Translations under genes and position numbers: made by a program
IMG/VR virus record: IMGVR_UViG_2654587792_000026
Location: 1 to 5,282 of that record
Origin: a virus
Taxonomy: Duplodnaviria; Heunggongvirae; Uroviricota; Caudoviricetes
Strand: one strand, 5' to 3'
DNA length: 5,282 nucleotides
Part shown: positions 1 to 5,282 of the stretch, piece by piece
Layout: the number at the start of each line of letters is the position of its first letter
How positions within the stretch are numbered: position 1 is the first letter of the stretch
Notes under the pieces: generated by a model
Told to the model about the DNA's origin: nothing
Database searches by the model: none
What the model saw: only the letters and a program-made list of their open reading frames with translations

Positions 1-42
1 GCATGACAAAGTCATCGGGCATTATCTGAACATAAAACACTA

Positions 43-120
43 TCAATAAGTTGGAGTCATTACCAACTCATACTGCTCCGGTGTTTTAGCATTACCAGCT
101 TTTATGTTCTTTAAGTGCAT
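43..120 (-). pseudogene. Start of a tail-fibre assembly (Tfa/U-type) gene, apparently truncated after ~25 codons
   Basis: ATG at 120-118 lies 4 nt downstream of the fibre cassette stop (127-125). Manual translation gives MHLKNIKAGNAKTPEQYELVMTPTY followed by TGA at 45-43. From memory, an MHLKNI...EQY start is the conserved N-terminus of Mu U / e14 TfaE-type assembly proteins, which are far longer than 25 aa. A shifted frame is open from ~67 to the window start, so a frameshift or continuation off-window cannot be excluded. Confidence 0.35.
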
Positions 121-124
121 CACA

Positions 125-1312
125 TTAAACGCTCGCTACATTATACCAGGTGCCATTTATATACTTTTGAACAGGTCTGTAATAAACGCCAGCTATATTA
201 TCGGCAGAGTTGGACCCTGTATCCTGAACATTAATACCAGACAATACATGACCTGACGGGCACTGGAAATTCCATGTTTGCCAGTTGTTCACACCATGAT
301 ATTGCTGTGAACCAAGACGAACATCTTTCACATAGCGGGAATCAAAATTCCCCCAGTTGCTGGGTTGTATCTGACCGTTAACAGCAAATATCACCGAGTT
401 ATCTGTATTTCGCTGACTATAGAAATGCCAGCCTGAATCATCACCAAGCTCTGCAACAGTTGGTCTTGACGAATTTCCCCACAAGCTAAATGATGCATTA
501 CGGGCAGCGGTATTTGCACTTGAAAGTGTGAAGAACTTACTTTCCCCAGCCTGAATACCCTTTAATGATCTTGCTGAACCATTTATAAAGCGGAATACAT
601 GCACACCATTAGCATAAGCATCCAGCACCCCATCACCATTTTGTTTAAACCCGGTATCGTTATCTCCTAAAACAATCGAGTTACCGCCAAGAGCACTGGA
701 TGTTCCGATGCCCAGTGCACCATTCAATTGACCGCCAGATAATGACAACGCCCCAACCTCAGCAGCAGTCGGTTTAATGTGCGAACTGTAAATTACATAT
801 ACAGTTCCATCTGTCAGACCTGTTGGTTTATTCGCTGTATAAGATGGTGATGTATGAATCGTTACGCTGGCGTTACTGGTATAATCCCACTGAATATTAA
901 CACCTGTGGCGTAATTACCTATTTCAACATAAACATCATAGGTATCACCGGATGTATTCACCCATGCAAAATTAGTAAATCCAACCGATGTCCGTCGCCA
1001 TAATGCACCAGTAATGCCTTTTGGATTCCCATTTCCTGCACGCAGAACCAGCTCAGAGATGCCTGCTTGATGCGAGGAGCCAACGTTATACCCTGCGCCA
1101 CCAATCAGGCTTATGTAAACCACGGAACTGGCTTGTGGCATTGTTACAGTTGCCAGTTTGAACCATCCAGCACCACCACTAAAAGACATGGTTGTTGAAT
1201 TTGTTGTGCCGATATTACGCAGGAATAGTTTTTTATCGGGAATATCTGCGCCGTTCTGGTTTTTCTGTAATGCACCAGAAGCCTGATTTACCGTTTCCTG
1301 TAAACCGAGGTT
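125..1312 (-). CDS. Tail-fibre variable C-terminal cassette, promoterless and in the silent orientation of an invertible segment
   Basis: The ORF track gives 125..1189, but the same frame stays open upstream to a TAA at 1315-1313 inside the crossover site, adding NLGLQETVNQASGALQKNQNGADIPDKKLFLRNIGTTNSTT before the first Met. The product is Gly/Ser/Asn/Thr-rich with a ...NWGNFDSRYV... motif near the C-terminus, typical of fibre distal receptor-binding domains. It is divergent from the invertase gene and starts within the recombination site, as Sv' does in the Mu G segment. The ATG at 1189 is therefore probably internal. Confidence 0.75.
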   Translation of the reverse strand, partial: NLGLQETVNQASGALQKNQNGADIPDKKLFLRNIGTTNSTTMSFSGGAGWFKLATVTMPQASSVVYISLIGGAGYNVGSSHQAGISELVLRAGNGNPKGITGALWRRTSVGFTNFAWVNTSGDTYDVYVEIGNYATGVNIQWDYTSNASVTIHTSPSYTANKPTGLTDGTVYVIYSSHIKPTAAEVGALSLSGGQLNGALGIGTSSALGGNSIVLGDNDTGFKQNGDGVLDAYANGVHVFRFINGSARSLKGIQAGESKFFTLSSANTAARNASFSLWGNSSRPTVAELGDDSGWHFYSQRNTDNSVIFAVNGQIQPSNWGNFDSRYVKDVRLGSQQYHGVNNWQTWNFQCPSGHVLSGINVQDTGSNSADNIAGVYYRPVQKYINGTWYNVASV

Positions 1313-1320
1313 TTAGATAA
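1295..1320. other. 26-bp gix/pix/cix-type crossover site for the DNA invertase
   Basis: TTCCTGTAAACC-GA-GGTTTTAGATAA: two 12-bp imperfect inverted half-sites around a central GA. It matches my recollection of Mu gixL (TTCCTGTAAACCGAGGTTTTGGATAA) at 25 of 26 positions and lies ~55 bp upstream of the invertase start. The inner half encodes the LGLQE junction peptide of the fibre cassette. Confidence 0.8.
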
Positions 1321-1374
1321 TGGCGGTTTCTGGCCTGCATGGCATGATTTGTGCTTTTGGACGGGAGATTCAGC

Positions 1375-1965
1375 GTGCTGATTGGCTATGTAAGGGTATC
1401 AACAAATGACCAGAATACAGACCTGCAACGAAACGCTCTTGTTTGTGCAGGATGTGAACAAATATTTGAAGATAAATTAAGCGGGACAAAGACTGACCGA
1501 CCGGGATTAAAACGCGCTTTAAAGCGCCTTCAACAAGGTGACACGCTGGTTGTCTGGAAACTGGATCGCCTCGGGCGAAGCATGAAACATCTGATTTCTC
1601 TCGTCGGGGAACTACGGGAGCGAGGGATTAATTTTCGTAGTCTGACCGACAGCATAGATACATCTTCTCCAATGGGGCGTTTTTTCTTCCACGTGATGGG
1701 TGCCCTGGCTGAAATGGAACGTGAATTAATTGTTGAACGTACACTGGCCGGACTGGCGGCAGCGCGCGCACGGGGGCGCACAGGCGGACGTCGACCGAAG
1801 CTGACAAAAGAACAGCATGAGCAAATAGCAAGGCTGATTAAAAACGGTCACGACAGAAAACAACTGGCAATAATTTACAGCATTGGTATATCGACAATTT
1901 ATCGTTACCACCCCGCAGGAGAATCAAGTGGAACAATTGAGAAGAGTAAACAAAATAACCGCTAA
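1375..1965 (+). CDS. Site-specific DNA invertase, serine recombinase of the Gin/Pin/Cin/Hin family
   Basis: Translation from GTG 1375 gives MLIGYVRVSTNDQNTDLQRNAL..., the canonical family N-terminus with the catalytic Ser at codon 9 (1399-1401). Conserved blocks GDTLVVWKLDRLGRS, SLTDSIDTSSPMGRFFFHVMGALAEMERELIVERT and a C-terminal HTH region (GRRPKLTKEQ...IIYSIGISTIYRY) are present. GGGAG at 1363-1367 is a plausible RBS 7 nt upstream of GTG 1375. The ORF-track start at 1351 (also GTG) would add 8 non-conserved residues and is less likely. Confidence 0.9.
   Translation: MLIGYVRVSTNDQNTDLQRNALVCAGCEQIFEDKLSGTKTDRPGLKRALKRLQQGDTLVVWKLDRLGRSMKHLISLVGELRERGINFRSLTDSIDTSSPMGRFFFHVMGALAEMERELIVERTLAGLAAARARGRTGGRRPKLTKEQHEQIARLIKNGHDRKQLAIIYSIGISTIYRYHPAGESSGTIEKSKQNNR
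1465..1530. promoter_or_regulatory. Candidate Fis-dependent recombinational enhancer inside the 5' part of the invertase gene
   Basis: In Hin/Gin/Cin systems the enhancer lies within the first ~100-170 bp of the invertase coding sequence. This interval holds an AT-rich G...C 15-mer (GAAGATAAATTAAGC, 1468-1482) and a perfect 14-bp palindrome (GCGCTTTAAAGCGC, 1514-1527) whose centres are ~46 bp apart. This is an inference from position and sequence form only. Confidence 0.3.
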
Positions 1966-1990
1966 TCTGGCCATTAGCGGTTTTTGTGTT
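1957..1990. terminator. Bidirectional rho-independent terminator between the convergent invertase and gpU genes
   Basis: Perfect 10-bp stem AACCGCTAAT (1957-1966) / ATTAGCGGTT (1973-1982) with a 6-nt loop CTGGCC. It is followed on the plus strand by TTTGTGTT and on the minus strand by ATTTTGTTT. It overlaps the invertase stop (1963-1965) and lies 11 nt downstream of the gpU stop (1996-1994). Confidence 0.6.
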
Positions 1991-1993
1991 AAA

Positions 1994-2488
1994 TCAGAAC
2001 AGCCCTTTAACGGAGCTGGCCGCGCTGTTAAGGGATGATGTGACCTTATCTTTGAAGCCGGACAGCATATCGCTGAACGATGAGGATTGCAGGCGCTCCC
2101 GCAAATCCTCATCACAGCGTTCAAGGGTCAGTGAAAACTCTATCTTTTTCGCCTTGCCGTAGCGATCAAACTCGGAACGGGTCGTATTCGTTTCAGTCAG
2201 TACATACATGCCGTAAATCTGCCCGACACCATCAATCAGAGGCCAGGGGCGTCCTGTATATGCCTGCGTGGTCAGCAACGAAAGCGACACTTCGCCACCT
2301 GTAATTTCAGGATAAAGCACGCCGGAAAGCACGATGCGATCATCACCTGCGCCGATATACTGCCAGCTTGCTGAACGGTTAACGCGTTCATTTTTCACAT
2401 GCCGCCAGCTTTTGTTTTGCTGTAACTGCTGATGCGGCAACGTGCGCAGCTCAAAAACAAACATGCCATAGATCATCATCATGGCCAT
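1994..2488 (-). CDS. P2 gpU-family phage tail protein
   Basis: The 164-aa product carries blocks recalled from the P2 gpU family: FVFELRT, SWRHV, IVLSGVLYPEITGG, GRPWPLIDGVGQIYGMYV and KKIEFSLTLER. It sits immediately 3' of the tape-measure gene with a 6-nt gap, the T-U order of P2-type operons. GAGGAG (revcomp of 2491-2496) overlaps the tape-measure stop; spacing suggests the true start may be the third Met (2482) rather than 2488. Confidence 0.85.
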   Translation of the reverse strand: MAMMMIYGMFVFELRTLPHQQLQQNKSWRHVKNERVNRSASWQYIGAGDDRIVLSGVLYPEITGGEVSLSLLTTQAYTGRPWPLIDGVGQIYGMYVLTETNTTRSEFDRYGKAKKIEFSLTLERCDEDLRERLQSSSFSDMLSGFKDKVTSSLNSAASSVKGLF

Positions 2489-2494
2489 GACTCC

Positions 2495-5282
2495 TCAATC
2501 TTTATCGTAAAAACTGCCACGCCCGGCACGGGCGCGCCGTTCCATTTCTGCCCTGACCATTTCGCCAACCAGTTTCGCCAGTTCGCGGGGATTCTGTGTA
2601 ACAACGTTATGCAGATGAACATGAATTTCACCGCCAAATCCGGAGGCAACAGGCTCCCGGTTACGGGAAGTTGCAGGAACTGATGCCACTGGCGATCGTA
2701 TAGCCTCCGCCACCGGGCGGGAGCTGGCCGCAACAACAGGGACCAGCGCCGGAGGCAGCGGAGCCGGAACCACGGGTGTGATAGTAATTGCGGGGGCAGG
2801 CTTACTGACCTGCGCAATCTTCCGCTCCTGCCACTCCCCACGAACAGCAAGTGCGCGGGGCAGGTTCTTAAAGACAATATCGCCGGGGCCAATGCGTTTT
2901 TTCGTCTCATCAACCAGCTTACCTGTGTTATCAGCAATTTTGCTGAGTCTGCGTAGCGTACCGGTATTGTTGTCTGTGAGCGGTTTGTTGTCTCTGGGTT
3001 TATCGCCTTTTTTGTCGTCGACCTTATCTGACGGGGCCGGGCCGGGAGTCCATGGTTTCTGAACCATTTTCTTGAGAACCGGATCCCATTCCCACATTAC
3101 AGGAGCCTTTGAAGCGTTCTCTATTTTCTTTCTCGCCCGTTCCGCTTCATCCGGAAGCACTCCGAGCTTTTCAAGTATCCACGCCAGTGAATCCATCAAT
3201 GCTTTTGTTGGCGTCAGGACAAGCTCTATCGCTCCACCGAGTACCCTGCCGAATACCTCGCCAGCACTGGTACATTTATCCAGCGTTTCCTTGCTGGACT
3301 CCATCGGTGACAGCAGCGATTTAAACCAGTTAAAGACCTGAATAATCCCATCGCGCACGACATCAAAAACTGGACCGAACCGTTCAAAGGTTTCGCGCAA
3401 CGGAGCCAGCCGTTCCATAATCCCACTGAACACCCCTGCATAAAACGCCTTGATGGGTTCCCAGTATTTCCAGATGAGAACCGCCGCAGCCACAAACGCA
3501 GCAGCAATCAATCCGACCGGGCTGAACAGCGCCCCGATAGCGCCCCCCAGTAACGAAACGGAACCCGTCACCATTCCCCATAGTGCTGGCAGGAGCCTGA
3601 CAGCATTCATTGATCCGGTCAGGAGGGAAAAGCCAAGACGCAGTTTTGCCAGCGGGCCAGCAAGCACACCAATAGCCAACGACAACGAGCCGACCGTTGC
3701 AGTCATCGCCAGCAATGCCCCACCTGCAATCAGTAGCTGGCGCGTCAGTGCCGGATGGGCCTGCGCCAGCGCCGTCACCTTTGATACCACCCGCGTGAGC
3801 CACTGCGTGACAGAACGCAGCGGACCGTCAATCAGATCTGCAATGCGGATGCGCAACCCTTCCCATGCACTGCCGAGTGATTTCAGATCGCCGTCAAGGT
3901 TGTTGGCCATAACCTTTGCCGTGCGTTCAGCCTCACCGCGTGCGCCTTCAAGTTCTTTTCTCAGTTTAGGTAAGGATCCGTCACCTGCCGCATCAACGAG
4001 GGCCATAAATGATGTGAAAGCCTCTTCTCCGGCAATGTCCTTAAAGAACGATACCCGATCAACTTCTCCGTATTTGCGGGTGGCTTTATAAAGGTCAGTC
4101 AGCAGATCTTCCATCGGGCGCATTTTGCCCCCGGCATCCGAGACAGACACGCCCAGCTCTTTCAGCGCCTCTGCTGCCGCCTTTGGCGGTGATGCCAGAC
4201 GAGCCAGGCTGGCACGCATTGCCGTCCCGGCATCACTTCCCCTGATACCCATATTCGCCAGCACGCCCGCCATCGCTGCGGCCTGCTCCAGCGATATTCC
4301 CAGCTTACCCGCCACCGGACCTGCATATTTCATGGTTTCGCCCAGTGCGCGAAGGTCAGTGTTGGTACGGGTAAACGCTGCAGTGAGTGTGTCACCGACC
4401 CGGTCCATCTGGTCAGCAGAAAGGCCGAACTGCGTCAGGATATTTGAGCCAATATCCGCCGTCTCGCCGAGATCCATACCGCCAGCCGTTGCCATGCTCA
4501 ACACGCCGGGAAGCGCAGCCTGAATGGCCTGCGGTGTGAAGCCAGCCATTGCAAGAAATGCCTGCCCACTGGCGGCATCGCCTGCGGTGAACTGCGTTTC
4601 AGAGCCAAGTTTTAACGCCTGCTCACGCAGCGCCTTAAACTGCGGGCTGTTCTGGTCGATTCGCGTCAGCGCCTGAACGCGGGACATCTCTTTCCCGAAC
4701 CCGATCGCAGGCTGCAAAAAACGCCCGGCAGCATAGCCGCCCGCCGCTGCCGCACCTGTTGCCAGTGCACCACCTGTTTTCAGTTTTCCCGCGGTTTCCT
4801 GCGCGCGCGAATACCGCTCACGCGCCCGCGTTACACGCGCAAGCGCCTGCCGTTCGCGTTCAAGCTGGTTGTTGTACTGTTCGGTGCGTCTGATGGCCTG
4901 TTGAATGGTGTTATCGCTGCCTGTCAGGGAAATGCCGTGGCGTTTCAGCTCTCCGCCAAGCTCCCGCATTTTCTGAATCTCCCGTGTGCGCGATTCATTC
5001 AGGCGTTCAAGCCGGGTGCTTAACTGCTGCATCAGCTTTTGTTGTTTTTCGCTGAGCACTGTACCCGTGTGTTGTAACTGATTAAGGGCGTTAAGCTGGC
5101 GTCGCGCTTTCAATATGCCAGCATCCGCTTTACTGACAGCGTCACGGGCGCGCTCAAATGAACGCGCCTGACGCTCGAGATTTTTGATCGCCCCCTGCGT
5201 TCGCTGGATGGAGTCACCAAACTGCCCCATCAGGCGGCGGGCGTTTTCGGCAGGCCGGGTCAGCCTGTCAACGGCGCTGAAA
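2495..5282 (-). CDS. Phage tail tape-measure protein (length-determining), 5' end outside the window
   Basis: More than 911 codons; the frame remains open from the ATG at 5230 to the window edge at 5282, so the N-terminus is probably off-window. It has a charged Gln/Arg/Glu-rich helical N-terminal region, an Ala/Gly-rich tract, a core with ...YAGPVAGKLGISLEQAAAMAGVLANMGIRGSDAGTAMRASLARL..., a ~100-residue hydrophobic stretch (~3461-3754) and a Pro-rich C-terminal region (~2642-2800). All are typical of tape-measure proteins. Confidence 0.85.
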   Translation of the reverse strand, partial: FSAVDRLTRPAENARRLMGQFGDSIQRTQGAIKNLERQARSFERARDAVSKADAGILKARRQLNALNQLQHTGTVLSEKQQKLMQQLSTRLERLNESRTREIQKMRELGGELKRHGISLTGSDNTIQQAIRRTEQYNNQLERERQALARVTRARERYSRAQETAGKLKTGGALATGAAAAGGYAAGRFLQPAIGFGKEMSRVQALTRIDQNSPQFKALREQALKLGSETQFTAGDAASGQAFLAMAGFTPQAIQAALPGVLSMATAGGMDLGETADIGSNILTQFGLSADQMDRVGDTLTAAFTRTNTDLRALGETMKYAGPVAGKLGISLEQAAAMAGVLANMGIRGSDAGTAMRASLARLASPPKAAAEALKELGVSVSDAGGKMRPMEDLLTDLYKATRKYGEVDRVSFFKDIAGEEAFTSFMALVDAAGDGSLPKLRKELEGARGEAERTAKVMANNLDGDLKSLGSAWEGLRIRIADLIDGPLRSVTQWLTRVVSKVTALAQAHPALTRQLLIAGGALLAMTATVGSLSLAIGVLAGPLAKLRLGFSLLTGSMNAVRLLPALWGMVTGSVSLLGGAIGALFSPVGLIAAAFVAAAVLIWKYWEPIKAFYAGVFSGIMERLAPLRETFERFGPVFDVVRDGIIQVFNWFKSLLSPMESSKETLDKCTSAGEVFGRVLGGAIELVLTPTKALMDSLAWILEKLGVLPDEAERARKKIENASKAPVMWEWDPVLKKMVQKPWTPGPAPSDKVDDKKGDKPRDNKPLTDNNTGTLRRLSKIADNTGKLVDETKKRIGPGDIVFKNLPRALAVRGEWQERKIAQVSKPAPAITITPVVPAPLPPALVPVVAASSRPVAEAIRSPVASVPATSRNREPVASGFGGEIHVHLHNVVTQNPRELAKLVGEMVRAEMERRARAGRGSFYDKD

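Follow-up and report, generated by a model that had tools for sequence, protein, structure and literature searches.

Known invertible tail-fibre segments

Invertible segments that supply a tail fibre with alternative tips have been described in several phages and prophages. The G segment of phage Mu comprises the genes S, U, U' and S'v, with the crossover sites gixL and gixR, the invertase gene gin and the sis enhancer; the 5' end of its silent cassette lies at the site adjacent to the invertase, as it does in the locus described here. Min of p15B operates on six sites and many cassettes. Together with Pin and the P segment of e14 in E. coli K-12, and Cin and the C segment of P1, Min belongs to the same serine invertase family as the enzyme of this locus, and all three systems resemble it, by description, in joining a constant N-terminal fibre part to alternative C-termini (PMC4272514). 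They differ from it in being carried by other phage backbones. Inversion at the related e14 locus of K-12 is reported to have been confirmed by PCR, and inversions in the P2-like prophages of EPEC E2348/69 have been detected by sequencing (PMC4272514).

P88, an inducible P2-like phage of porcine ETEC (PMC6456863), is among the closest relatives of the locus. The stretch analysed, hereafter the window, is the entire 5,282-bp contig JHTM01000208.1 of the draft assembly GCA_001506145.1, and positions 65–5282 match P88 and the phages 520873, 503458 and P884B11 with ~95% identity over 75% of this span. As in P88 and other members of Xuanwuvirus (P2-related, Peduoviridae), a silent cassette is followed by a crossover site, an invertase gene, and then the genes of gpU and the tape measure on the opposite strand. 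Identity to P88 is ~95% over 1239–5282, whereas the cassette allele is different, P88 DNA having no match to 125–1238. The two also differ in that an IS1 element interrupts the assembly gene of the silent cassette (tfa') in the window.

Compared with Mu, the phage of the window is P2-like and not transposable, and its constant fibre part and the middle of its cassette are unrelated to Mu S. The genes beyond the invertase also differ, with com and mom past gin in Mu and tail genes past the invertase in the window. A third comparison is offered by a 48.5-kb phage-plasmid of strain ATCC 25922, which has an invertible fibre segment of the same kind, present in both orientations in independent assemblies. 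That element differs in being a plasmid-borne P2-like phage with RepA, in the outer half of its invertase-side site (TTCGCAAAAACC), and in a cassette that lacks the ~55-residue longer distal region found here.

On the evidence set out below, we assign a probability of about 0.9 to the reading that positions 125–1312 belong to a P88-like prophage (Xuanwuvirus, P2-related) and represent the silent variable cassette of its Gin-type invertible tail-fibre segment. A Gin/Pin-type tail-fibre switch in a known phage genus is a system already known. The exact chimera of known modules is new, and the IS1 insertion is peculiar to the genome of the window; the kind of system is unchanged.

The fibre frame

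The cassette, equivalent to Hv' or S'v, occupies 125–1312 on the minus strand with 395 sense codons and ends at a stop codon at 127–125. In the minus-strand translation of 122–1351, a single in-frame stop, TAA at 1313–1315, lies upstream of the fibre frame. The first 41 sense codons after it encode NLGLQETVNQASGALQKNQNGADIPDKKLFLRNIGTTNSTT, and the next is a Met codon at 1189–1187. The first-pass annotation had described these 41 codons as devoid of a start, which both the translation and the ORF listing bear out, the latter containing no ATG, GTG or TTG in the fibre frame 5' of 1189. PHROG tail-fibre families match the 395-codon frame with E values down to 1e-88, and the frame is therefore a real coding sequence and not a chance ORF. 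The matches came from PHROGs and from PDB sequence searches; a Pfam search placed the cassette in no family.

Expression of a standalone protein from the ATG at 1189 by its own promoter and ribosome-binding site had been named at the outset as the observation that would speak against a silent cassette. Neither signal was found in the sequence: the 15 nt 5' of the ATG (acaaattcaacaacc) hold no Shine-Dalgarno sequence, and a scan of the minus strand detected no sigma-70-like or other promoter-like site upstream of it. Because the TAA lies in the outer half of the crossover site, and a promoter, a ribosome-binding site and a start codon are all missing from the frame, the cassette is predicted to be untranslated in the sequenced orientation.

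The crossover site and the invertase

A 26-bp crossover site of the gix/cix/pix type, with a 12-2-12 organization, is located at 1295–1320, between the invertase gene and the cassette. It reads TTCCTGTAAACCGAGGTTTTAGATAA, with the core dinucleotide at 1307–1308, and on the minus strand TTATCTAAAACC-TC-GGTTTACAGGAA. The site is identical to the invertase-side site of P88 at 26 of 26 positions and matches Mu gixL and gixR at 25 of 26 positions each; the Mu sites were read from the annotated Mu genome, where they span the annotated boundaries of the G segment. A literature search with the literal gix sequence returned no match. Both the in-frame TAA at 1313–1315 and the codon AAC at 1310–1312 are part of the outer half-site, which remains beside the invertase; inversion would replace the AAC. 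The first-pass annotation had the frame run from the crossover site; it does begin inside the site, whereas the cassette proper starts at about 1308, at the central dinucleotide, and not at 1312.

The site is embedded in a longer repeat. Positions 1239–1326, which encode the shared peptide LGLQETVNQASGALQKNQNGADIP, correspond to the right-hand arm of the inverted repeat by which the invertible segment is bounded in relatives. They match, in inverted orientation and at 91–97%, a left arm within the fibre gene of TUM14668, of O103:H2 12009 and of both assemblies of the ATCC 25922 plasmid. In TUM14668 and O103:H2 12009 the arms measure 93–102 nt and lie 2.9–3.1 kb apart.

The gene to the right of the site (1375–1965, plus strand) starts at a GTG preceded by GGGAG and encodes a serine DNA invertase of the Gin/Pin/Cin/Hin family with 196 amino acids. 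The protein contains the Pfam domains Resolvase (E 2e-50) and HTH_7 (E 3.5e-13), matches PHROG 125 ('DNA invertase', E 9e-97), and is 85% identical to Mu Gin over 181 amino acids. The VRVSTNDQ stretch, which holds the catalytic serine of the family, is identical in the two proteins. The least conserved part with respect to Mu Gin is the helix-turn-helix region (residues ~125–180). Past residue 181 the two sequences part (residues 182–196, window 1915–1965), and the invertase of the window exceeds Gin by 3 residues.

The first ~225 nt of the invertase gene are almost identical to those of Mu gin, with few positions differing. The 5' part of Mu gin is presumably where the Fis-dependent recombinational enhancer resides; Kahmann et al. 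reportedly placed it there in 1985. From its homology to Mu gin, the 5' coding region of the invertase gene should carry an enhancer of this type, and inversion would then depend on Fis and on this element.

Downstream of the invertase, the genes lie outside the switch. A hairpin with a 10-bp stem and T-runs on both sides (1957–1982) is located between the convergent invertase and gpU genes and is terminator-like on both strands. The same inverted repeat occurs in TUM14668 (15721–15762), and the hairpin is probably a shared bidirectional terminator. A P2 gpU-like tail protein gene follows on the minus strand (1994–2488; Pfam Phage_P2_GpU, E 5.5e-39), and next to it, on the same strand, the tail tape-measure gene (2495–5282; Pfam PhageMin_Tail, E 4e-58), which lacks its first few codons. 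The latter is called as a protein of 928 amino acids that touches the contig end; the homologue in P88 measures 2,808 nt. The right end of the contig (5230–5282) thus falls among the first tape-measure codons. A break at the start of this gene points to a repeated sequence, of which another related prophage in that genome may be the source.

Gene order in relatives and inversion of the segment

In P88, TUM14668 and O103:H2 12009 the locus shows one and the same order. Baseplate genes are followed by the constant part of the fibre gene, the left site, the expressed cassette, its assembly gene tfa, then tfa' and the silent cassette in inverted orientation, the right site and the invertase gene. 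Past the invertase, the three share a block on the opposite strand with gpU, the tape measure, E, FII and FI, and D comes next. The constant part of the fibre measures ~425 amino acids in these three and ~425–480 across the relatives. A constant part and a second cassette had been predicted to the left of the window, and the prediction holds in these three genomes; in the genome of the window itself, the contig stops at IS1 before reaching them. A search for the left flank in that genome mapped the cassette protein solely to JHTM01000208.1. Judging from the relatives, the left half of the switch may persist there as well.

Inversion of the segment can be read directly from public assemblies. 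Two assemblies of one 48,488-bp phage-plasmid of ATCC 25922 differ by a 3,071-bp inversion and are otherwise >99.9% identical. In CP009073, the cassette homologous to that of the window adjoins the recombinase gene and is annotated as "incomplete; missing N-terminus", whereas in CP158444 the homologous cassette forms the C-terminus of a fibre of 816 amino acids, with an in-frame junction that reads ...VIEYLGLQETVNQ.... The sequences of the two sites of this plasmid are not the same, and between the assemblies the outer halves have changed their inner partners. The exchange falls between site positions 9 and 20, which is consistent with cleavage at the central dinucleotide. ATCC 25922 is a widely used reference strain, and at least 6 of its public assemblies have the homologous cassette in the silent state, while 3–4 have it fused.

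Among complete E. coli genomes, the 5' module of the cassette is joined to a constant part in 19 and lies silent at the invertase side in 5. The proposal of the first-pass annotation, that a cassette of the Mu/P1 type is expressed when inversion fuses it in frame to the constant part, is thus supported by the crossover site, by the invertase, by the alignment of the first 41 codons to Mu S', by the layout in relatives, by the inversion in ATCC 25922, and by the presence of fused and silent forms of the module among these genomes.

A separate feature of the gene order concerns the tail operon FI-FII-E-T-U, which runs opposite to the fibre genes and D, and is inverted with respect to canonical P2 (H G FI FII E T U D). 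The inverted arrangement (window 1375–5282; P88 9137–16593; TUM14668 15143–22608) is common to P88 and all close relatives. A second inversion, of the FI-to-U operon by the same invertase, was considered and rejected, the layout being fixed in P88 and in all close relatives. At the borders of the FI-to-U block of P88, searches for a gix-like pseudo-site (up to 9 mismatches) and for an inverted repeat of at least 8 bp found neither. The arrangement looks like a fixed genus-level rearrangement rather than a second switch, and D would need a promoter of its own.

Composition of the cassette

Both ends of the cassette protein are related to Mu fibres. Residues 1–41 align to residues 169–209 of Mu S', beginning at the boundary of the G segment. 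The last 95 aligned residues (300–394) align to Mu S 413–503, the receptor-binding domain (PDB 5yvq, E 7e-16), with an identity of ~47%. A comparison of the C-terminal part with known receptor-binding domains had been proposed in the first-pass annotation, and its outcome is this resemblance to the Mu S domain. Between the two ends, the sequence is similar to fibre shafts and gives weak matches to T4 gp34. Mu fibres bind lipopolysaccharide (PMC11915804), and by analogy the tip formed by the fused cassette would probably bind a receptor of this class too.

Over its whole length, the cassette combines two types. Residues 2–395 and the C-terminal part of the fused ATCC 25922 fibre are 77% identical, and the DNA of the N-terminal two-thirds (587–1314) is ~96% identical to the ATCC 25922 cassette. 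The distal part (residues 196–395) shows 92.5% identity to the E. coli O103:H2 12009 cassette. A segment at 353–586 (residues ~243–320) has no counterpart in ATCC 25922 or TUM14668, matches O103:H2 12009, and shows a weak similarity to the T4 gp34 shaft. Positions 353–586 thus mark a site of recombination within the cassette, whose tip is a mosaic. The cassette as a whole is an intact chimera, with a shaft-proximal part of the ATCC 25922/TUM14668 type and ~200 distal residues of the O103:H2 12009 type. This exact cassette is absent from all 5,426 complete E. coli genomes.

A previously unseen chimera could confer a new receptor specificity, and IS1 inside the segment may freeze or rewire the switch, for example by locking a prophage or tailocin to one fibre type. 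We consider this extension rather improbable.

IS1 in the assembly gene and alternative readings

The left end of the contig lies inside IS1. Positions 1–64 (minus strand) are the terminal 64 bp of the element and comprise its terminal inverted repeat, which reads GGTAATGACTCC... on the minus strand, together with the last transposase codons. IS1A/IS1B copies that agree with them at 100% occur in 4,959 of 5,426 complete E. coli genomes, and the median is 10 places per genome. Similarity to related prophages begins exactly at base 65. From there to 123, on the minus strand, extends the 5' fragment of the assembly (chaperone) gene of the silent cassette, tfa' (the G'/U' equivalent), with ~18–19 codons (MHLKNIKAGNAKTPEQYE...). 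The fragment is 94–95% identical to the first 59 nt of the genes annotated as 'tail fiber assembly protein' downstream of the silent cassette in TUM14668, O103:H2 12009 and ATCC 25922. In the position of an intact cognate assembly gene directly 3' of the cassette, the window thus has these few codons and then IS1. The insertion of IS1 in tfa' probably explains the break of the assembly at this end. A 52-nt pattern over the junction of IS1 and tfa' found no match in a species-representative genome collection.

According to the Mu record, tail-fibre assembly proteins are required for the correct folding of such fibres (PMID 31209305). The alternative fibre of the window would probably fold poorly or be defective even after a flip, unless the other assembly protein of the segment substitutes. 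Because IS1 cuts tfa' after ~18 codons, the switch may be crippled in the genome of the window. Either a simple insertion or an IS1-mediated deletion of the left half would leave a contig that ends in IS1; the choice between the two bears on the present state of the switch, not on the identity of the cassette.

The deletion can be carried further, to a reading in which IS1 has removed or rearranged the whole left part, from tfa' and tfa through the expressed cassette to the left site and the constant part. The cassette would then be a stranded relic that can never be fused and decays in a defective prophage. Several observations fit such a history: IS1 abuts codon ~18 of tfa' just where the contig ends, an IS1 at the same point of tfa' occurs in none of the 5,426 complete E. 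coli genomes, a second contig break lies in the tape-measure gene, and some relatives are defective, such as O103:H2 12009 with its truncated D gene. Decay is nevertheless not what the remaining sequence displays. The 395-codon frame is free of stops and ends like its intact homologues, the crossover site agrees in full with that of P88, which is inducible, and the invertase retains its whole length and the catalytic serine; moreover, any simple IS insertion yields a draft contig that ends in IS1 when assembled from short reads. We regard the relic as unlikely, though it deserves to be taken seriously.

We regard as very improbable a shufflon of several cassettes and three or more crossover sites, of the sort known from Min of p15B and from the EPEC E2348/69 P2-like prophage with three repeats. 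Multi-site versions do occur in E. coli P2-like prophages (PMC4272514), and the left side of the segment lies outside the contig, where further sites might be sought. Allowing up to 9 mismatches, the window nonetheless contains a single gix-like site, and in the closest relatives (P88, TUM14668, O103:H2 12009 and the ATCC 25922 plasmid) the segment has exactly two sites each, the second lying inverted 2.9–3.1 kb to the left.

A standalone gene for a protein of 354 amino acids from the ATG at 1189 is highly improbable: gene callers do place such a CDS at 125–1189, and RefSeq calls a similar CDS with an internal start a 'hypothetical protein' in O103:H2 12009, but besides the missing Shine-Dalgarno sequence and promoter-like site, Met 1189 is an internal residue of full-length fibres, the 41 codons upstream are conserved as protein along their alignment to Mu S', RefSeq itself labels the homologues in TUM14668 and ATCC 25922 'incomplete; missing N-terminus', and the product would miss the N-terminal attachment part, without which, in Mu and P2 fibres, a fibre tip could not join the virion.

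Proposed mechanism and implications

For the silent cassette of a Gin-type switch, the mechanism would proceed as follows. The invertase would pair the right site with an inverted copy in the fibre gene, situated ~3 kb leftward in relatives. In an intact switch, this left site would be expected to have the form TTATCGAATACCTCGGTTT(A/G)CAGGAA. Host Fis, bound to the putative enhancer near the 5' end of the invertase gene, would assist. Strand exchange would take place at the 2-bp core (1307–1308), and a segment of ~3 kb would flip. The constant N-terminal part would thereby be joined in frame to ...LGLQETVNQ... and the 395-residue cassette, and the assembly gene belonging to the cassette would come to lie downstream in the same late operon. 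The expected outcome is virions with a different fibre tip and hence a different host range.

The finding has little significance beyond annotation. The 354-residue "gene" that automatic pipelines predict does not encode a protein of its own; it represents the silent half of a switch in host range, and its annotation should read as a fibre C-terminal cassette that lacks its N-terminus. Switches of the Gin type occur widely in the P2-related prophages of E. coli, their cassettes recombine into chimeras, and IS elements can disable them. Both orientations are relevant to the prediction of host range from prophages and to the engineering of phages and tailocins.
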